From a virus, in the IMG/VR virus record IMGVR_UViG_3300025138_000016: a stretch of 64,000 nt of DNA. One strand, 5' to 3'. The notes below the pieces were generated by a model that saw only the letters and a list, made by a program, of their open reading frames with translations, did not search any database and was not told the DNA's origin. Both the position numbers and the translations under genes were made by a program. Shown here in pieces: positions 20,616 through 56,681 of the stretch (position 1 is the stretch's first letter; every line of letters starts with the position of its first letter).

Positions 20616-21434
20616 TTAGTTGTCTTCTAATTCATCGATTAAGTCTTCCCATATGTCCTGATGGTTAACTATTGTTGATAATGTAAACCTATTTGTACGA
20701 GCATGCGCAGCATGCCAGGAAGAATCTTCTGGATTATCCGACCATTTTACTATCGGATTATCCATACCTATTTTCTCTCTATGTATTTTTTCTGGTGCTG
20801 TTGATATAAATTGTCCTGCTCTACAGCTCCAACCCTTTGCGTCAGGGTATTCTAAAATCTCACCATTATCATAAGTAAAGAAGTCCCCTTCACCTATTTT
20901 GTTATAATGTAATAATATGTTATAACCTGGTGCATTTCCGTTATGATGCCAAGGTATAAATGTGCCAGGTGTATAAAAAGCACAAAGCGCCATTGCTCCA
21001 CCACCTAGAAAGTCAGCTGATATATCATATACAGCTTGTTTAAGTTTTGTACCTAAGAAGAACTTAGGATTGTTATAGAATGTTTGTCCAGCTAAGAATG
21101 TTTCCGCATTAGGAAATCCGCTAGTAACATGTGAGCCATTTTCTTTGCGCATTAAATTCATCTGATACTGAAGGTATTCCATACCACATGGATCCATCTG
21201 TCCATCTTTAATATCATCTCTTGTATGACTTGGTAGTATATCAAAGTGAGGAGATACTTTATACGCTTCTTTACCTTCTTTCCTTCTCTGCTCAGGGTTA
21301 CGATGATCAAAAGACAACTTATGTTCTCTATCTAAAAACTCTTTATCATCGAATACTTGATCAACAAGTCCAGATATATTATCTAATAGTTTAAGAAATT
21401 CTGGATTCTTAATCTTTACGTCACGCATTTTCAT
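20616..21434 (-). CDS. Cupin / 2OG-Fe(II) oxygenase-like protein (272 aa)
   Basis: FYTPGTFIPWHHN..PGYNILL and distal WHAA..NRFTLS, i.e. a double-stranded beta-helix pattern with HxN...H...R. The second ligand is non-canonical (Asn instead of Asp/Glu). Confidence 0.55.
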   Translation of the reverse strand: MKMRDVKIKNPEFLKLLDNISGLVDQVFDDKEFLDREHKLSFDHRNPEQRRKEGKEAYKVSPHFDILPSHTRDDIKDGQMDPCGMEYLQYQMNLMRKENGSHVTSGFPNAETFLAGQTFYNNPKFFLGTKLKQAVYDISADFLGGGAMALCAFYTPGTFIPWHHNGNAPGYNILLHYNKIGEGDFFTYDNGEILEYPDAKGWSCRAGQFISTAPEKIHREKIGMDNPIVKWSDNPEDSSWHAAHARTNRFTLSTIVNHQDIWEDLIDELEDN

Positions 21435-21440
21435 TATAAA

Positions 21441-22301
21441 TTATCCTTGCTCATGAGGAGCTCGTGCTTGTTCCTTTTCTTCTTGGGTTAACGTCTCCCA
21501 TTCATCTTCAGCATCCTTATAATCTTCTGGTAAAGCTTTATGCATTAATTGACGATCTAATGGATGATGTTTTATTACTGGTGTACAGCCTGCCTCTTCT
21601 TCAGCATTTAGGTACATATTCCAATTCCATTTAGCCTGACCGAACTCAACAGCTGATACTTTTATACCTGGTGCGTCGAATTTCATTATATACCATAATG
21701 TAAATTGGTCCCAGCTTTTATTACCTATCCAATATTCAGGATGCTCGTCCCACCATTTTACTGAACAGTTTATTTCTTTATATCGAGGCCACCAATTGTT
21801 AATAACATTATTAGCTGCTTCAGTATCATTCCATAAAAAGAATCCACCATGCCATATAAAGTTTCTTTCAGGGTCATCATCTCGTATACCAGCATTACCG
21901 TCTTCGGCATATATGGCTGTTGATGCTCCAACTCTTGTTGTTATCTTACAGAAAGCCATATCATGCTCATCATCAAGTAGCTTCCATACATCCTGTATTT
22001 CAGGATCAACAATTTCCATATCAGCATCAAGATAGCATGTCTTTTTAAATGGTGAGAATGGTAGACCCCATAGCTTTGTTCTTGTACTATGTGGCATACC
22101 TTGATCTTCAGTAATAATATCTACTACTTGATCGTACTCTCTAAACTCATCTGCCCATGTATTATGTGTTACAATTAATACTTTACAGTCAGGATAGTAC
22201 TCATCTAATGAGTCTAATAGAATAAGTGCGTTATTTTTATACCAGGGATGTAGCGTCGCTACTATAACAAAACCTTTATCGTATGTCTTATTGACTGACA
22301 T
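21441..22301 (-). CDS. Glycosyltransferase, GT-A fold (GT8-like)
   Basis: K.WGLPFSPFKKTCYLDAD (DxD), HGGFFLW, WDQFTLW, WNW and VIKHH motifs; ATG start at 22301 (GTG at 22310 is an alternative). Confidence 0.75.
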   Translation of the reverse strand: MSVNKTYDKGFVIVATLHPWYKNNALILLDSLDEYYPDCKVLIVTHNTWADEFREYDQVVDIITEDQGMPHSTRTKLWGLPFSPFKKTCYLDADMEIVDPEIQDVWKLLDDEHDMAFCKITTRVGASTAIYAEDGNAGIRDDDPERNFIWHGGFFLWNDTEAANNVINNWWPRYKEINCSVKWWDEHPEYWIGNKSWDQFTLWYIMKFDAPGIKVSAVEFGQAKWNWNMYLNAEEEAGCTPVIKHHPLDRQLMHKALPEDYKDAEDEWETLTQEEKEQARAPHEQG

Positions 22302-22704
22302 CGTAATCACTCACAACTGCTGATGCATATACGTTTAATGCTTCAAACGTTTCTGCTTTACGAAGTCTTCGTTTTAGTTTTTTATTAGTAGAGGCTTTTA
22401 TTTCTGGAAGTTCGTAAAGAGTTAATTTTGCTTGGAACAGTTGTTCTGCAAAAGCTCTCTTTTCGTTTTCCTGTTGTTCTTGCTCTTGAGTGTCGCGTTG
22501 GGTTCTGTACTCATCTATATCAGCTTGAGTTCTTGCATCGATCTCATCTAGAGTAGTTTCGCGTAAAGCAGCATCCCAATTTTCGGTATCTGCTCTGTCG
22601 ATTATCATCTCACGACTTCCGGTGTCAGTTATTTCCCGACACCTTAGTCTTGTCTTTGTTTCTGGATCTTCCCACAAGATTTTTTTAAATCTTTTATCTG
22701 CCAT
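22288..22704 (-). CDS. Hypothetical helical protein (138 aa), possible fibre chaperone
   Basis: Charged helical ORF with GAAGG SD; first gene downstream of the repeat-protein pair. Confidence 0.6.
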   Translation of the reverse strand: MADKRFKKILWEDPETKTRLRCREITDTGSREMIIDRADTENWDAALRETTLDEIDARTQADIDEYRTQRDTQEQEQQENEKRAFAEQLFQAKLTLYELPEIKASTNKKLKRRLRKAETFEALNVYASAVVSDYDVSQ

Positions 22705-22761: not shown

Positions 22762-25700
22762 TTATGCAACTCTCAGCCATAGTTTAACTGTGCTTTCTAC
22801 ACTAGTACTAGCCATAATAGTATCACCTGAGAACTGTCCTGTAAACTGATTACTAAATGTACTTGTATACTGAGGACCTGGAGTCGATCTAGAATAGGTT
22901 CCATCTGAATAACTTGGTCCACCAGTAGCTCTAGCATAGCCTATTGCAAAGTTTGGTCCAACTACTAGTCTAGCATACTGACCATCTGTGTAACCTGGTC
23001 CAGGAGTAGTTCTAGCGTAGCCTACTGCATAGTTAGGTCCTGGTCTACTTCTAGTATATTGACCGTCTGAGTAGCTAGGTCCTGGTGTAGTTCTAGCATA
23101 GTTAGTTGTATACTGTGGTCCTGGTGTTACTCTAGTATAGTTACCATCTGAGTAGCTAGGTCCAGGAGTAGTTCTAGCAAAGTTAACTACGTAGTTAGGT
23201 CCTACAATTAATCTTGTATATTGACCATCTGAGTAGTTAGGTCCAGGTGTTGATCTAGCATAACCTACTGCATAGTTAGGACCTGGTCTGCTTCTTGTAT
23301 ACTGACCATCAGAGAATGTTACACCTGGTGTTGATCTTGTGTACTGTGCAGTAAATTGTCTTAAGAACGATCTACCATAACCAGCAGAGTAAACTCTTAC
23401 GAAGCCTCTAGCATATGCTCCTGTAAATTGTCTGTTGAATGCTCTTGAATAACCAGCTGAGAATTGTCTAGCAAATGCTCTTGAATACTGACCATAATAG
23501 GCTCTAGCAAACGCTCTACCATATCCTGCTGAATATACTCTAGTAAACTGTCTAGCATATTGACCAGCGTATTGCCTAGCAAATGCTCTTCCATATCCTG
23601 CTGAGTAGACTCTAGTAAATTGTCTAGCATATGCACCGTTATAAACTCTTCCGAATGATCTTCCATATCCTGCTGAGTAGACTCTAGTAAATTGTCTAGC
23701 ATATGCTGCTGAATATACTCTTCCGAACGATCTAGTATAACTAGCTGAATAAACTCTAGTAAATTGTCTAGCATATGCACCGTTATAAACTCTTCCGAAT
23801 GATCTATTATAATTAGCTGAGTAAACTCTACCAAACGATCTTCCATAAGCGCCAGCATATACTCTGCCATAGTTAACAGCATAAGCTGGCCCAGGCCTGC
23901 TTCTACCATAGTTTACAGCATAAGCTGGTCCAGGTCTTGATCTAGCATAGTTAACAGTATAGTTAGGTCCTGGTCTACTTCTTGCGTAGTTGCCGGTATA
24001 TACTCTACCATAGTTAACTGTATACTGTGCTGAATAAACTCTACCATAGTTTACTGTATAAGATCCGTAATAGATTCTTCCAAAGGATCTTCCATAAGAT
24101 ACACCATAATTTGGTCCAGGTCTTGATCTACCGTAGTTACCAGCATATAGTCTACCGTAGTTAACTGCATATGAACCTGAATAAGTTCTACCATAGTTAC
24201 CGTAATAAACTCTACCATAGTTAACAGCATAGTTTGGTCCATTATATTGAATGCCAGGTAAAGGTCCCCTAGCATATTGAGGTCCAAAGAAGTTAGAGCC
24301 ATCACCACCATTAATAGGTGAAGGTGATTGCCATGGATAGTTTCTTGAGAAAACTCCACCATAGTTAGTACTTGGAAAAGAGTTATTAAACTGTCTTGTA
24401 TAACTTACACCATAAGCTGGTCCAGGTCTTGCTCTGTTATAAGCCGGCCCGCCTCTTGATCTACCATATGATACGCCGTAGTTTGGTCCGCCTCTTGATC
24501 TAGCATAGCTACCGTAATAAACTCTACCGTAGTTAACAACATAGTTTGAAGTATAATTTGGTCCAGGTCTTGATCTACCGTATGCTACACCATAAGCTGG
24601 TCCAGGTCTTGACCTACCATAACTTACACCATAAGCTGGTCCTGGTCTACTTCTTCCGTAGTTACCTGCATATACTCTTCCGAAAGCTCTTCCGTATGCT
24701 GCTGAATATACTCTACCGTAGTTAGTTGCATATGCACCATAGTATACTCTACCATAGTTAACAGCATAAGCTGGCCCAGGTCTGCTTCTTGCGTAGTTAC
24801 CGTCTGAATAACCTGGTCCTGGTCTTGATCTAGCATAAGCTACATCATAGTTAGGACCTGGTCTACTTCTAGTATAGTTACCATCTGAGTAGTTAGGTCC
24901 AGGTGTTGATCTAGAATAGCCTACTGCATAGTTAGGTCCTGGTCTTGATCTGGCATAGTTACCATCACTATAGTTAGGTCCTGGTCTGCTTCTTGCGTAG
25001 TTAACAGTATAGCTTGGTCCTGGTCTACTTCTAGTATAGTTACCATCTGAGTAGTTAGGTCCAGGTGTTGATCTAGCATAGTTAACAGTATAGTTAGGTC
25101 CCGGTCTGCTTCTTGTATATTGGCCATCTGAGTAGTTAGGTCCAGGTGTTGATCTAGCATAGTTAACAGTATAACTTGGACCTGGTCTAGTTCTTGAATA
25201 CTGACCGTCTGAATAATTTGGTCCTGGTGTCGCTCTTGCATAACCTACTGTATAGTTAGGTCCTACAATTAGTCTAGAATAGTTACCATCTGAGTAATTA
25301 GGTCCAGGTGTTGATCTAGCGTAGTTAACAGTATAGTTAGGACCAGTAGTAGTTCTTGCATATTGACCATTAAATACTCTCTGGAATTGTCTTGCATATT
25401 GACCAGCATATTGTCTAGCAAACGCTCTAGTATATTGCGCTGAGAATACTCTAGTAAACTGTCTAGCATATTGACCGTTAAATTGTCTCTGGAATGATCT
25501 TCCGTATCCTGCTGAGAATGATCTAGCGAACTGTCTAGCATATTCACCAGAAAATGATCTAGCAAATGATCTTCCATACCCTGCTGTAAATGATCTAGCA
25601 AACTGCCTAGCATATTGACCAGCAAATTGTCTAGCAAATGCTCTTGAATAGTCTGCTGTAAATGATCTATTAAATGCTCTGGCGTATTGACCAGTAAACT

Positions 25701-26595
25701 GTCTAGTAAATGATCTTGTATAGTCAGCTGTAAATGCTCTAGCAAATTGTCTAGAATACTGTGCTGAATATACTCTGGTAAACTGTCTTGAGAAGTTACC
25801 AGTAAATTGTTGTGAGTACTGCTGAGATTGAACATCAGATAAACTATTTTCTATAGCATTTGATACCTGTAACCATGTTCCTGTTCCTGGGGCAGCAGTT
25901 TGTAGCTTATAAGTACCTACTCCAGTAGCTACTATTCTATTTCTTAATCTTTGTGTGAGAGTTTTAATCTCAGTATTATTCATCTCATTAACTGATGGTG
26001 TTGATGCATGTGCAGTTGCTTTCAAAGGTCTATATTCAGTTGGTGAAGTACCTGATGCAATCTTTCTCCATAGTTTATATGTAGTTGCTGCTGATTCACC
26101 AGTAGCTACTGTATCAGTAAAGGTGCCTTTATCCTGCCATGTACCACCAGATGGAGGAGATACTCCTAAAAAGTATTGCCCTGTTGCGTAACTAGATGTA
26201 TTTGCTATCTTTGCAATTAGGTGAGACATTACTGATGCATTTAAATCAGTGTCGTCTTGCTCTTCTATACCTTTGGATGCATCCCACTGAAGAGGTCTTA
26301 CAAGACCGCTCTCTGAATGTGAAGCAATATTTTGATAAAGTGTAGTAGTAACAGAGTTAGTAGCTCCAGTAGCTGGATGTGTTCCTACTGTTTCTGTTCT
26401 TCTCGTATCAACAAAAGTACCCACTGATGTACCTGTTGAAAAGCTTATATCACCTGTGCCTGTGCCTGTAGCGAAATCAGCCAGTATGATATCTGCCATG
26501 TAATCCATTTCGGCACTAGACATGCTCTGTAAGCCAGAGAAATTGGTTGTATTCGGTGTACCCGAACTAGTTTTAATTCTTAAAGGATTTGCCAA
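22762..26595 (-). CDS. Giant Tyr/Arg/Gly/Pro repeat protein with mirror-complementary repeat order (1277 aa); putative hairpin fibre
   Basis: TTG start with GGAG SD. A ~260-aa N-terminal base is followed by ~980 aa of A/B repeats centred on NGGDG, then C-terminal VKLWLRVA. Confidence 0.85.
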   Translation of the reverse strand: MANPLRIKTSSGTPNTTNFSGLQSMSSAEMDYMADIILADFATGTGTGDISFSTGTSVGTFVDTRRTETVGTHPATGATNSVTTTLYQNIASHSESGLVRPLQWDASKGIEEQDDTDLNASVMSHLIAKIANTSSYATGQYFLGVSPPSGGTWQDKGTFTDTVATGESAATTYKLWRKIASGTSPTEYRPLKATAHASTPSVNEMNNTEIKTLTQRLRNRIVATGVGTYKLQTAAPGTGTWLQVSNAIENSLSDVQSQQYSQQFTGNFSRQFTRVYSAQYSRQFARAFTADYTRSFTRQFTGQYARAFNRSFTADYSRAFARQFAGQYARQFARSFTAGYGRSFARSFSGEYARQFARSFSAGYGRSFQRQFNGQYARQFTRVFSAQYTRAFARQYAGQYARQFQRVFNGQYARTTTGPNYTVNYARSTPGPNYSDGNYSRLIVGPNYTVGYARATPGPNYSDGQYSRTRPGPSYTVNYARSTPGPNYSDGQYTRSRPGPNYTVNYARSTPGPNYSDGNYTRSRPGPSYTVNYARSRPGPNYSDGNYARSRPGPNYAVGYSRSTPGPNYSDGNYTRSRPGPNYDVAYARSRPGPGYSDGNYARSRPGPAYAVNYGRVYYGAYATNYGRVYSAAYGRAFGRVYAGNYGRSRPGPAYGVSYGRSRPGPAYGVAYGRSRPGPNYTSNYVVNYGRVYYGSYARSRGGPNYGVSYGRSRGGPAYNRARPGPAYGVSYTRQFNNSFPSTNYGGVFSRNYPWQSPSPINGGDGSNFFGPQYARGPLPGIQYNGPNYAVNYGRVYYGNYGRTYSGSYAVNYGRLYAGNYGRSRPGPNYGVSYGRSFGRIYYGSYTVNYGRVYSAQYTVNYGRVYTGNYARSRPGPNYTVNYARSRPGPAYAVNYGRSRPGPAYAVNYGRVYAGAYGRSFGRVYSANYNRSFGRVYNGAYARQFTRVYSASYTRSFGRVYSAAYARQFTRVYSAGYGRSFGRVYNGAYARQFTRVYSAGYGRAFARQYAGQYARQFTRVYSAGYGRAFARAYYGQYSRAFARQFSAGYSRAFNRQFTGAYARGFVRVYSAGYGRSFLRQFTAQYTRSTPGVTFSDGQYTRSRPGPNYAVGYARSTPGPNYSDGQYTRLIVGPNYVVNFARTTPGPSYSDGNYTRVTPGPQYTTNYARTTPGPSYSDGQYTRSRPGPNYAVGYARTTPGPGYTDGQYARLVVGPNFAIGYARATGGPSYSDGTYSRSTPGPQYTSTFSNQFTGQFSGDTIMASTSVESTVKLWLRVA
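22858..25794 (-). repeat. Coding tandem repeats: 36-nt A units (YxRxFxRxYxGx) and 39/42-nt B units (YxRSxPGPxYTVN / YxRSxPGPNYSDGN)
   Basis: Near-identical DNA units are visible, e.g. 72-nt periodicity around 23520-23820 and 81-nt periodicity around 24870-25330. Confidence 0.9.
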
Positions 26596-26655: not shown

Positions 26656-29091
26656 TTATGCAATTCTTAACCACAAGGTCTTAGTATTTTCAGTATAATT
26701 TGAAGAAACTGTGAGGCCTGAATACTGTTTATTACGAGAACCAGCAAATTGATTGCTATAAGATGAAGCAAACTGTGAGCCAGGTGTTGATCTTGTATAT
26801 TGTCCAGTAAATTGTCCACGAATAAAGTTACCTGTATACTGAGGACCAGGTCTTGATCTAGCAAAGTTTACAGTATACTGTACTGACCTTGCATACGTAA
26901 CACTATAAGCACCAACAAATTGTCTAGCAAATTGACGCTGATAATCCCCTGAGAAAGATCTAGCATAATCAGCTGTATATACTCTTGTGTATTGAGTGAG
27001 GTATGTTGGTCCATTATAGTTAGGACCTACTGTGCTTCTAGTATATTGAGCTCTTGCATATAGACCAGCATACTGAGGTCCAGCAAATTGTCTACCATAA
27101 GCACCATAACTTCTAGAGCCTGCGAATGTTCTAGTATAAAATATTCGCGAATATGCCGGAGCATTTCTTGTTCTTGCATACTGTGCTGTATAGTTTCTTA
27201 AATAACTAACTGAATATGCAGGACCATCATATTGTGGACCAGCTACATCTCGAGTAAAGGTACTTATATACTGAGGTCCTGCTCTTGATCTTGCATATTG
27301 AGGACCATCATATTGTGGTCCTGGAGTTGATCTAGCATAAGCAGGACCATTAAAAGATAGAGAAGGCACAGATCTTGTATACTGTGGACCACCTGTAGCT
27401 CTAGAAAAGCTTCTAGAGAAGAATCTTGTATATTGTCCTCTTACAAAGTTTACTGGAATAGGCCCACGGTTATATGAGCCTCTAAAATATGCTCTTCCAT
27501 CACCACCATTTGCTTCGCTTTCTGGAACGTTATAATAGTAAACTGTTCTATAAAAGACTTGAGAAAAATCGAATCCTGGAGCTGTACCTGAATAAAGACC
27601 TGTGAACTGATTACCTGTTGAGTAATTTTGATCATATTGCCCTATGTAAGTTCTACCATACTGGCCAGCATAAAATCTTTGATAAGCCGCTCTTGTATAG
27701 TTTGCTGAGTATACTCTTGTATATTGTCTTTGATATTGCGCTGAATAATTTCTAGCATATTGAACTGAATAGTTATTAGTATATCGTCTAAGAAATGTCC
27801 TAGTATAATTAACAGTATAGTTTGGTCCGTCTGTTGATCTTGCATACTGACCGTAATAAACTAAAAGATATGCGACAGCATATGTAATGCCTCTTGAATA
27901 TGCGCCTGTGAAAGATACTGCATAGTTATCTCCCCTTGCATACTGTCTTTGAAATTGCGAGGAATATGTACGAGCATATTGACCTGCATATTGTCTAGTA
28001 AATGCTCTTTGAAATTGAGCACTAGCATATTGAGGTCCAGGAGTAGATCTTGCGTATGAGAGGCCTGCAACTACTCTTGTATATTGTGGACCATCATAGT
28101 TAGTACCAGCTACTCCTCTAGCAAAGTTAGATATATAACCTCTTGCAAAGCTACGTCCATAGCTACCAGCATATACTCTTTGGAATTGATCTGCATATTG
28201 TCTAGCAAATTGTCCTCTAGAATATTGATCACTAAATATTCTTTGGAATTGTCTAGCAAAGGTATTAGCATATTGTGCTGTATAGTTACCAGTATATTGA
28301 GTATTTTCAATATTAGGATTTCTGTCTGTAGCAGCTCCTCTTGCAACCCATGTACCTACACCAGGAATAGAAGTTTGAAATTTATATGTGCCGACGCCTG
28401 TTGCTACTATTCTATTTCTTAATCTAGCTACTAATGTCTGTATTTCTGTATCAGACATTTCTTGTAAGTTGGTAGTAGATTGTTTAAGTAGTTTAACTTG
28501 AGTAGGACTACTAGTATGAGATGTTTTTCTCCATAGCTTATAAGTAACTTTTTGATCTTCATCATTTGCGTTGTTAGTAACTTCATCAAAGAATTGATCT
28601 TGAGCTACCCAAGTACCACCAATGCTAGGTGCATTAACACTAACGTAATAAGATCCTGCAGCTGCATATGTTGAATTAGCTTTAGCTATATCATCTAAGC
28701 AAAGTTGCATTATAGTAGTGTTTAATTGAGTAGATGTTTGTTGTGCAACATGACCAGGATTAGATGTACCACCATGTGTAGCAGGTGTAATCATACTAGC
28801 TTCTGATAAAGAAGAAACGTTTTGTTTAAATATATAAGTAGTAGCACCAGCTGATCCTGAATAAGGATGCGATAAGAGTTCACCAGTTGCAAAATTATCT
28901 ACAAATGTACCAACACTAGTACCTGTTGAATTGATATTTAAATCTCCAACATGATCACCAGAGCCTGACTCTGTAGCGTACTTAGTGTTTATTAATTTAA
29001 CGGAATAGTCAAGCTCAGCATTTGTTGTGACTTGGACTCCATTATTATAAACCCCATTTGCATGTGTTCGCAACTTAAGGGGATTGCTCAT
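26656..29091 (-). CDS. Paralogous Tyr/Arg repeat hairpin protein (811 aa)
   Basis: Shares the NPL(K/R) N-terminus, GTSVGTFVD, YKLWRK, RLRNRIVATGVGTYK, the NGGDG turn and the LWLR(I/V)A C-terminus with 22762-26595. Confidence 0.85.
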   Translation of the reverse strand: MSNPLKLRTHANGVYNNGVQVTTNAELDYSVKLINTKYATESGSGDHVGDLNINSTGTSVGTFVDNFATGELLSHPYSGSAGATTYIFKQNVSSLSEASMITPATHGGTSNPGHVAQQTSTQLNTTIMQLCLDDIAKANSTYAAAGSYYVSVNAPSIGGTWVAQDQFFDEVTNNANDEDQKVTYKLWRKTSHTSSPTQVKLLKQSTTNLQEMSDTEIQTLVARLRNRIVATGVGTYKFQTSIPGVGTWVARGAATDRNPNIENTQYTGNYTAQYANTFARQFQRIFSDQYSRGQFARQYADQFQRVYAGSYGRSFARGYISNFARGVAGTNYDGPQYTRVVAGLSYARSTPGPQYASAQFQRAFTRQYAGQYARTYSSQFQRQYARGDNYAVSFTGAYSRGITYAVAYLLVYYGQYARSTDGPNYTVNYTRTFLRRYTNNYSVQYARNYSAQYQRQYTRVYSANYTRAAYQRFYAGQYGRTYIGQYDQNYSTGNQFTGLYSGTAPGFDFSQVFYRTVYYYNVPESEANGGDGRAYFRGSYNRGPIPVNFVRGQYTRFFSRSFSRATGGPQYTRSVPSLSFNGPAYARSTPGPQYDGPQYARSRAGPQYISTFTRDVAGPQYDGPAYSVSYLRNYTAQYARTRNAPAYSRIFYTRTFAGSRSYGAYGRQFAGPQYAGLYARAQYTRSTVGPNYNGPTYLTQYTRVYTADYARSFSGDYQRQFARQFVGAYSVTYARSVQYTVNFARSRPGPQYTGNFIRGQFTGQYTRSTPGSQFASSYSNQFAGSRNKQYSGLTVSSNYTENTKTLWLRIA

Positions 29092-54419: not shown

Positions 54420-56681
54420 ATGGCAGACGATACAGGAAGCGGCATACAAAGAAATAAACCCTTACCGAAAGGTATGGGTGATGGAAAATCTAATGCACAG
54501 GTTTTCGGTATCCTCGGTCAACAAGTAAAGCGCATAGGTGATTTACAAAGAGCAATAGTAAGTGGTAACCAAGCACTTATTGAACAGCTTAAAACCCAAC
54601 ATTCAGAAATAAAAAATTGCGATAGTGATCAATTACAAGTCTTATTTGATATTGATACAGCTATTCGTAAAATTGGTCTTCAATTAGGTCCGATTGCAGC
54701 TGCTGCAATCGAAAAGGCAGAAGATATGAATCGAGGCTCATCAATAGTTGGACCAGGTCCAGGATCTATTGATATAGGAGCTAATAAACTTGGTAAAGAT
54801 GCTGATGGTGCAGGTAAAAAGGTAAATAGTTTAGCTTTAAGTGCAAATAATTTAAAGCAAAGACTTGTTGGTGGCGGTGGCGGTGCACTAGTCGGTTCAG
54901 CAGCTGGTGGATTAGCTGGCGGCGGTGTAATGGGAGCATTAACTACTGTTGGTATAGGTCTCGGTGTAGTTGGTATAGGTACTGGTCTCTTGACTGGTGC
55001 TTTATATCTAGGAGCTAAAGCAGTAGATAAATTTGGCGAAGGATTAATTAAAACAGCAGAAGGGTTAGATGATCTTAACGATCTTGACCTGATACCATCC
55101 AGATTTGATAGAATAGGTGAAGCTATTCAAAATTTAATACCTGATAGTGGTTTAAAAGGTGTTATATCAGCTAGAATATTATCAGGCGCAGCCTTCAGCG
55201 ATATGGCTAAAGGGCTTAATGATTTAAATAAAATTGATACTACTAATTTCGAAACTAATTTTGGTCGAATTGGTGGTGCTATTAATGAACTAACTAATAA
55301 CGTTGGATTTGGTGGCGCAATTCAGCTTAGAATACTTGACGGTACAGCGTTTAATGATTTAGCAGCTGGACTAGAAGCATTAGATGGTGCTGAGTTTGAT
55401 ACAGCTAGATTAGAAAAAGCAGGCGCAGGTATACGTGCATTAACAACAGGAGCTTCCAGTTTATTTGGTAATCTCGGTGCTACTATTATAACAAGATTAG
55501 GTAGAGCGTCATTAGGTAGTGTAGCAGACGGACTTACGGCTTTAAGTAATGTTAATACAGATGACGACTTTGATCAGAGGATGGCTAAAGTTGGTCAGGG
55601 TATAAATCTTCTTGTTACAGATTCAACATCATTTAAAGGTGTTATAACAACTGGTCAGCTTACTACAATTGGTGAATCCTTACCATTAATAGCAGATGGT
55701 ATTACAGATCTACAAGGACTTGGAGATGCAACTCAAGTAGCAGCTACTCTAACGCAGGTTGGTACAGGACTTAAGAGTTTCTTAGATAGTACTGGTAATA
55801 TAACAGATGTTATGATGACTAAGCTATTAAATGATGAGACATTTGCGCAAATAGCTAAAGGTATTAATCACTTAACGGCACTTAAGGTTGATGGTGATGG
55901 TGACTCTACAAAGGTAAGAGACTCATTAACTGCTCTTGGTACCGGGCTTGGTAACTTTCTTGATGGTACAGATAACTTATCAGGCACATTCGGTGCTAAA
56001 ATACTATCAGGTGATACACTAACAACACTAGCAACTGGTTTAAGTGAAATTAACAAATTAGATCTAGACATAAGTAAATTTGAAAACATAGGTACGGCTG
56101 TTGATACACTAATCTCAGGATTGAGCGGAGAGATGGCAGCTGATAAAGGTGATGGAGCTTTAGCATTCTTACAAGAACAACTTACTCGTGTTAGTGGTGT
56201 ATTCAGAAATACATCAACACGAATTGTTTCTGGTCCTATAGCCGATATCGCTGAAGCAATGAAGCAGCTTGATGCTGTTGATGCATTAGATCAAGAAATC
56301 TTAGCTAAGAATGCTGATACTATCATTAAAATTGTGCAAAACATACATGATGATATTATTACTGATGATTTTGACAATTTCGGCAACTTTATTGGTGAAT
56401 TAAAAGAATTAGAGAAAATTGATATAAGAAGACTTAATCAGCTCGGTGAAACGCTAACTAAGTTTAATTTTATTAATACACCACCAAAAGATATGAGTGC
56501 ACAACCTAATACACAAGGTAAAACTCTATCTAATGATGCAGTAGCTCAAATCGTGAGCGCAGTTCAAATGGATAACAGCAGTAGAACAGCTGTAGACAAT
56601 TCTGTCACTACATCCACAACTAAAAACATATCTAGAGTAACAGTTAATCCTGTACCACATCGAATTATACTTTCTAAGTAA
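54420..56681 (+). CDS. Tape-measure-like protein (gp29 position, 753 aa)
   Basis: Long helical A/G/L-rich protein with degenerate repeats and a hydrophobic glycine-rich segment, downstream of gp26/gp51. Confidence 0.65.
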   Translation: MADDTGSGIQRNKPLPKGMGDGKSNAQVFGILGQQVKRIGDLQRAIVSGNQALIEQLKTQHSEIKNCDSDQLQVLFDIDTAIRKIGLQLGPIAAAAIEKAEDMNRGSSIVGPGPGSIDIGANKLGKDADGAGKKVNSLALSANNLKQRLVGGGGGALVGSAAGGLAGGGVMGALTTVGIGLGVVGIGTGLLTGALYLGAKAVDKFGEGLIKTAEGLDDLNDLDLIPSRFDRIGEAIQNLIPDSGLKGVISARILSGAAFSDMAKGLNDLNKIDTTNFETNFGRIGGAINELTNNVGFGGAIQLRILDGTAFNDLAAGLEALDGAEFDTARLEKAGAGIRALTTGASSLFGNLGATIITRLGRASLGSVADGLTALSNVNTDDDFDQRMAKVGQGINLLVTDSTSFKGVITTGQLTTIGESLPLIADGITDLQGLGDATQVAATLTQVGTGLKSFLDSTGNITDVMMTKLLNDETFAQIAKGINHLTALKVDGDGDSTKVRDSLTALGTGLGNFLDGTDNLSGTFGAKILSGDTLTTLATGLSEINKLDLDISKFENIGTAVDTLISGLSGEMAADKGDGALAFLQEQLTRVSGVFRNTSTRIVSGPIADIAEAMKQLDAVDALDQEILAKNADTIIKIVQNIHDDIITDDFDNFGNFIGELKELEKIDIRRLNQLGETLTKFNFINTPPKDMSAQPNTQGKTLSNDAVAQIVSAVQMDNSSRTAVDNSVTTSTTKNISRVTVNPVPHRIILSK

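Follow-up and report, generated by a model that had tools for sequence, protein, structure and literature searches.

Mirror-complementary repeat arms in a tail-module protein of a marine T4-like phage: a putative giant fold-back hairpin fibre

The virus record IMGVR_UViG_3300025138_000016 is considered here as a stretch of 64,000 nucleotides (the window), which belongs to the genome of a T4-like myophage. One of its genes, at 22762..26595, encodes a protein built largely of two types of repeat, A and B, and the question raised by this locus is why the repeats of the second half appear to answer those of the first half in reverse order. An initial annotation, made from the letters alone, proposed a giant self-pairing hairpin in which every A faces a B. 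The mirror code proves to be exact, it is conserved through insertions and deletions in orthologous proteins, and it is highly probable that the chain folds back into an antiparallel hairpin with a pairing code. The parts of the gene are as follows:

22762..26595, minus strand: hairpin-fibre gene, 1277 amino acids (aa), TTG start
25819..26595, minus strand: base domain, residues 1-259, with three internal repeats (helix and collar-like beta unit) in a putative pseudo-threefold beta-prism; the hairpin interrupts repeat 3
24403..25818, minus strand: outgoing arm, residues 260-731, A12 B15 A3 B3 A1 B3
24232..24402, minus strand: non-repetitive tip, residues 732-788, with a turn motif at residues 762-766 (24298-24312) that is also present in the upstream paralogue
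22834..24231, minus strand: returning arm, residues 789-1254, A3 B1 A3 B3 A15 B12
22765..22833, minus strand: C-terminal strand, residues 1255-1277, which completes repeat 3 of the base

The TTG start is preferred over the downstream ATG chosen by gene callers elsewhere because the orthologues begin at the same motif as the target, using ATG, GTG or TTG.

When cut at aromatic residues, the array falls into a limited vocabulary of 4-, 5- and 9-residue words, and it was parsed by fixed rules; an aromatic residue opens most of the 4-5-residue words of the arms. An A core joins an Arg word to a small-residue (Gly/Ala) word and a B core joins one to a Pro-Gly-Pro 5-mer, and therefore a forward A fits a backward B. 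The automatic parse yields the cores A12 B15 A3 B3 A1 B3 - tip - A3 B1 A3 B3 A15 B12, exactly the series that had been counted by hand. With 74 tokens in each arm, the nth token counted from the start opposes the nth counted from the end with zero gaps, so that all 37 core pairs (37/37) join an A to a B, as had been claimed. If the C-arm cores are shuffled, a test that the initial annotation had suggested, the chance of a full A/B match is 8e-11, or about 1 in 20,000 when the six-block structure is kept. The tip motif predicted near residue 762 lies at residues 762-766, and the irregularities noted earlier, namely the linkerless core pairs and the double linker, are mirrored as well.

At the elementary level, 111/111 words are paired, and Arg never faces Arg (0 such pairs vs 23 expected). 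The main combinations are Arg with a Gly 5-mer (50), Arg with a Gly/Ala word (37), Arg with a Val-type word (15), and Val with Val (7). The acidic 5-mer linkers oppose Arg linkers in 13/13 cases, again in accordance with the earlier claim, and these Arg linkers carry Ala at position 2 in 10 of the 13 cases, as against 0/15 of those facing Val-type linkers (Fisher p 2e-5, an optimistic value since the repeats are not independent). The complement-mirror score of the target is 156, compared with a maximum of 60.5 after within-arm shuffling, 79.5 for a parallel control and only 10 for an identity-mirror control; the mirror is thus one of complement, not of identity. As B has one residue more than A, the sum of the paired positions shifts from 1496 to 1520. 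The shaft contains 125 Arg, 74 Pro and 18 acidic residues (net charge near +107), and a composition count found neither His nor Cys in the 995-residue insert. The proposal of aromatic/Arg chemistry in place of HxH-iron sites accords with these counts.

The same gene slot is occupied by orthologues in three other phages (L022, 1499 aa; L016, 1021 aa; L025, 946 aa), whose bases are 53-58% identical to that of the target. Relative to the target, the outer blocks A12/B12 of L022 have become A15/B15 and the inner blocks B15/A15 have become B20/A20; L016 and L025 contain paired BB/AA blocks in orders quite different from that of the target. Insertions and deletions in one arm are therefore compensated in the other in all three, the behaviour that homologues had been expected to show if the hairpin were real. 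With the arm ends set from dynamic-programming traces and no internal gaps permitted, word pairing is complete (131/131, 84/84 and 76/76 in L022, L016 and L025, respectively), again with 0 Arg/Arg pairs, 11-28 of which would be expected by chance in each of the four proteins. Positions in the opposed A and B words also covary, most strongly position 6 of A with position 4 of B (Gly with Arg/Val, Ala with Thr). The rule derived from the target outscores shuffled orders in the majority of 30 homologues with the same vocabulary, 6/30 having failed to score. A cruder rule, Arg versus Gly, exceeds all shuffles in only 7/32 family members and in 0/2 gp38-like proteins, and in this crude form it does not carry over to distant members that use other vocabularies. 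As judged from these sequences, the A/B code is established for one subfamily only.

What carries the array is a base of about 280 residues, composed of the N-terminal 259 and the C-terminal 23 residues and containing three internal repeats, which HHalign matches to one another at 99.6, 96.6 and 94.1%. A short turn connects two strands of repeat 2, and the equivalent strands of repeat 3 flank the array (HHalign 99.6%); on this alignment the array has been inserted into the beta-hairpin turn of base repeat 3. AlphaFold2 models were obtained for the paralogue and for a 373-aa family member, not for the target. In both, the base is predicted with a local distance difference test score (pLDDT) of 85-98, and long strands exit and re-enter it. 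The stem of the hairpin is predicted to pair through strands 248-278/778-809 in the paralogue and 231-252/342-371 in the short member, with cross-arm contacts in no more than the initial 20-30 residues of each arm; for the remainder of the hairpin the evidence is that of the sequence.

In both models the best structural matches are MABP-type beta-prisms. The top five are all of this kind (Z 7.1-3.5, root-mean-square deviation (rmsd) 3.7-5.7, 105-116 residues aligned), the best being that of the homologue model (Z 7.1, rmsd 3.7, 116 aligned), and the next, unrelated match has Z 2.8. A single base repeat also superposes on gp11 of T4 and of KP1 (Z 2.5-2.6, rmsd 3.0-3.2, 43-45 aligned, 24-28% identity). 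Against a gp11 profile from which the finger domain was removed, the repeat profile reaches 70-75% (score 28 vs a shuffled maximum of 17), and against unedited gp11 it reaches 19-33%. The base gave no match to the Pfam families GP11, Gp10_C and Collar, nor any sequence match in Pfam or PDB to the MABP families, and a Foldseek search of the models against PDB and BFVD gave nothing at E 0.001; an Atlas feature search with the base gave scores only near 0.8. Taken as a single-chain pseudo-trimer of three fused collar-like units, the base has moderate support.

A plausible course of folding can be outlined from these features. The N-terminal 259 and C-terminal 23 residues would co-fold into a base of three collar units, which would bring the ends of the arms together and allow the arms to zip. 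The hairpin itself would be the last beta-hairpin turn of unit 3, lengthened by about 1000 residues: 470 out, a turn, and back. The arms may then form an antiparallel two-stranded twisted ribbon, possibly paired continuously to the tip and up to about 150 nm long, in which aromatic and Arg side chains would alternate on one face and stack as a cation-pi ladder. Gly or Ala opposite Arg would give space, Pro would shield the free edge, the 5-mers would make one-residue bulges, and the alternation of A and B blocks between the arms would set one register. In evolutionary terms, three collar units may have been fused into one chain, with one left to bear the long hairpin, and trimerisation would therefore be no longer needed.

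The genes around the hairpin gene all lie on the minus strand. The window contains portal, sheath, terminase, sheath stabiliser, baseplate wedge and tail-fibre genes, and the hairpin gene comes after the wedge genes gp25/gp6/gp7/gp8 amid tail-fibre genes, i.e., in a baseplate/tail-fibre module. The equivalent slot is also occupied in L016, L020, L022, L025 and the isolate C48C1. The sequencing runs that contain the gene are marine metagenomes from many studies; RNA contigs of a 95%-identical strain span most of it, possibly from DNA in the library, and are not counted as expression. The protein may serve as a long, thin, strongly cationic feeler with a variable tip; the gene position, the variable length and tips, and the Laminin-G domains found in a relative suggest such a role in host capture. 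On balance, we favour, with some reserve, an appendage on the virions of a marine T4-like myophage, in the form of a monomeric two-stranded ribbon fibre standing on a pseudo-trimer base.

Several observations weigh against this picture. Beyond the stem, pLDDT is below 50 in both models, and no long ribbon is modelled. The A/B covariation picks no single residue register, and the covarying pairs share a common descent. The structural link to gp11 is weak in Z, and the gp11 profile was edited after the structural match had been seen; HHalign of the base reaches only 1-10% with gp10 and less than 1% with gp37. Finally, no solved structure offers a precedent for an isolated two-stranded ribbon of 470 residues per arm with a net charge of about +107, and such a ribbon may depend on a partner.

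An origin of the mirror in DNA duplication, or as an artefact of assembly, is effectively refuted, and hardly any weight is left to it. Such an origin might be suspected since N-gaps lie within the array in two scaffolds (L003 and L012) and since one protein, P0184 (669 aa), resembles the N-terminal half of the paralogue fused to the C-terminal half of the target and has no mirror; P0184 is probably a misassembly between the tandem genes, or otherwise a rare recombinant. However, no DNA inverted repeat matches the arms (the longest in the gene is 22 nucleotides at about 73-82%), which agrees with the initial annotation that the symmetry is selected at the protein level, and the mirror is one of complement. 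The same allele of 3834 nucleotides, with 0-7 substitutions, occurs in three assemblies (L007-L009) from different samples and apparently from two assemblers, which makes artefactual repeat counts unlikely, and contigs from three studies tile every bin of the gene with almost no differences and no indel, although no single contig spans it. Orthologues with different block orders obey the same rule. Pairing of the arms between chains, in domain-swapped dimers or a mesh, or pairing that is only local, with much of the array flexible, would be in line with the low AlphaFold2 confidence across the array, and the code would be met equally well in trans. We regard this as very improbable: the N- and C-terminal parts close one domain, the stem is predicted to pair within the chain, and exact full-length matching in four proteins would be hard to sustain if pairing were local.

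More serious is the possibility that the fold-back hairpin is real and that the chains bundle, either three of them into a six-stranded gp37-like needle with an aromatic core, or two ribbons or paralogues face to face. The gp37 needle is likewise inserted in a collar domain and is trimeric (PMC6957217). One face has an aromatic residue at every fourth position, which would favour its burial; covariation that fits more than one register is what a barrel would give; and two paralogues with the same vocabulary stand in tandem. Nevertheless, the base already provides three collar-like units, only one of which bears the hairpin, the two prolines in each nine-residue B word would break hydrogen bonding along one edge, and Arg on the aromatic face would presumably crowd a narrow barrel core. 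Bundling is therefore judged unlikely, though it deserves to be kept in mind, and the gp37-like oligomerisation raised in the initial annotation is unsupported and now appears less likely. A two-stranded ribbon is likelier than a trimeric iron needle because of the apparent single-chain pseudo-trimer base, the lack of His and the 74 prolines; the absence of His together with two Pro per B word fits a single chain, and such prolines suit a free edge. It is also conceivable that the hairpin acts not in adsorption but as a structural brace or a ruler lying along the tail or the head, or as a binder of a polyanion such as packaged DNA. The very high Arg content and a length of up to about 150 nm, comparable to that of a myophage tail, speak for such a role, but it is rather improbable given that the insert ranges from 0 to about 3000 residues across the family, that the orthologues vary from 946 to 1499 aa, and that tips vary and some relatives have extra domains. 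As to the preferred ribbon, the fold-back part of the original proposal, which reckoned with about 490 residues per arm and up to 160 nm, is strongly supported by the compensated blocks, the insertion in a turn and the AlphaFold2 stem. The 160 nm stands only as an upper bound: about 444 paired positions would give at most 145-160 nm if the ribbon were straight.

The hairpin gene belongs to a larger family. A profile search gave 388 representatives at 50% identity, distributed in marine and freshwater T4-like phages; complete members share the N-terminal part of about 250 residues and the C-terminal strand, and the inserted residues always lie between the same two strands. This number is an under-count, because gene callers miss N-gapped copies and mis-start others; in the N-gapped scaffolds, as at L003 2496-6432, they overlook the target and call short open reading frames (ORFs) in other frames. 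Most of the related phages have two tandem hairpin genes, the first encoding about 800-900 aa and the second variable. L020 (10001-19297) encodes two members: the hairpin tip of one includes a stretch that looks lectin-like by eye (with no Pfam match), and the other, of 1733 aa, has Laminin-G domains inserted into its base. In GenBank, C48C1 (OQ984149; L001 19983-30026) is the only one among 50,697 phage records with the base, and its homologue of 3347 aa has an Arg-rich first half and a Gly-rich second half with several globular-looking insertions. P0198 (L042 3895-7665) and P0199 contain aromatic-period-four arrays without the base, preceding a gp38-like adhesin domain (PF05268, below cutoff). 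Growth of the array by tandem duplication of whole hairpins was considered and dropped, since a single tip is present.

Searches of Pfam, PHROGs and PDB sequences with the target gave no meaningful match, and scans of IMG/VR found one close relative of the paralogue and no close relative of the target. The initial annotation recognised no described family of this architecture, and the structures and literature searched likewise gave none; the hairpin family, such a code and phage C48C1 are all undescribed in that literature, most subscription journals being outside its reach.

The genes next to the hairpin gene are the following:

26656..29091, minus strand: tandem paralogue, 811 aa, with the same base and tip motif and a shorter, more irregular hairpin of the same vocabulary
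22288..22704, minus strand: 138-aa partner gene, which immediately follows the hairpin gene(s) in 7/7 loci, including those of the short member and C48C1
21441..22310, minus strand: putative GT-A glycosyltransferase with an invariant DxD motif; position kept in six loci
20616..21434, minus strand: putative 2-oxoglutarate-Fe(II)-type (2OG-Fe(II)-type) hydroxylase-like protein; position kept in six loci, a lead only

The glycosyltransferase-like gene has weak matches to glycogenin (E 0.03) and to Pfam GT2 (in 5/6 members, best E 0.006). The hydroxylase-like protein has no Pfam or PDB match, and its nearest named Atlas clusters score 0.86; among the 50,697 GenBank phage records its gene is found only in C48C1, which has a second copy near 40.4 kb. 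This arrangement suggests that the 138-aa protein is a candidate chaperone and that the two enzymes may modify the fibre, but common descent could by itself account for the linkage of the cassette. The full combination of a single-chain, unsupported beta-ribbon of about 150 nm, a compensated word code resembling an RNA stem, a base of fused collars, and hydroxylation or glycosylation by the adjacent phage enzymes has about even prospects. Elsewhere in the window, a 753-aa ORF at 54420-56681 (plus strand) is without a PHROGs match.

A large unannotated family of T4-like phage proteins with a likely role in host capture has thus been defined, and it represents a class on which present structure predictors fail. 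If the ribbon is real, it would be, to our knowledge, the longest beta-hairpin by far, and it would offer a protein complementarity that can be read from sequence, with partner words predictable as in a nucleic-acid stem. It would also provide design rules for long beta-ribbons of chosen length and register, a clean system for studying how two distant repeat arrays grow in step, and a route from trimeric to single-chain fibres.

Which known systems come closest? Cross-strand aromatic and cation-pi stacking is found in tryptophan-zipper hairpins and in the Trp/Arg ladders of thrombospondin repeats, and it could stabilise a coreless ribbon; these ladders span tens of residues and have no block code, and the likeness is chemical only. 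The MABP-type prisms (MVB12B, 3TOW; MACPF C-terminal domains, 2QP2 and 8B6V; the perforin-2 P2 domain, 6SB1) would resemble the base, if its predicted fold is right, in being single-chain pseudo-threefold beta-prisms, and the P2 domain also projects a hairpin from its prism. However, the identity is 4-10%, the base adds three helices and lacks a MACPF domain or any toxin-like feature, and its hairpin is far longer. The relation among MABP-type domains and their DLN metal motif have been described (PMC10344926); no DLN motif is seen in the base.

The T4 proteins gp10, gp11, gp12 and domain D10 of gp37 share a common flower (collar) motif, one per chain, and form trimers (PMC3004832, PMC6957217). 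The motif runs from a helix through a Gly-x-x strand and a Pro-Gly-x-Trp strand to a final aromatic-x-x-Arg strand. A base repeat superposes, at low Z, on residues 63-219 of gp11 (PDB 1EL6) minus the finger, and the gp10 sequence has an insertion between the same two strands as the hairpin array; the large insertion of gp11 is at another loop. Unlike gp10, gp11 and gp12, which are homotrimers with one motif per chain, the present protein would have three copies in one chain. The structure of the gp37 long-tail-fibre tip is available as PDB 2XGF. Its D11 needle has 128 residues, is trimeric, binds seven irons through His and is inserted in the D10 collar (PMC6957217). The likeness to D10/D11 lies in a long out-and-back insertion in a collar-type domain closed by the N- and C-terminal parts, a feature also found here, with the collar identity itself moderately supported, and in the location in a phage tail module. 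The differences are an insertion of about 1000 residues without His or Cys and without HxH iron motifs along the shaft, a block code of aromatic, Arg, Gly and Pro words, three collar-like units per chain, and no Pfam match to the Collar/gp37 C-terminal families. The collar-plus-insertion layout is known from gp37; the hairpin ribbon that it would carry here we infer from the sequence.

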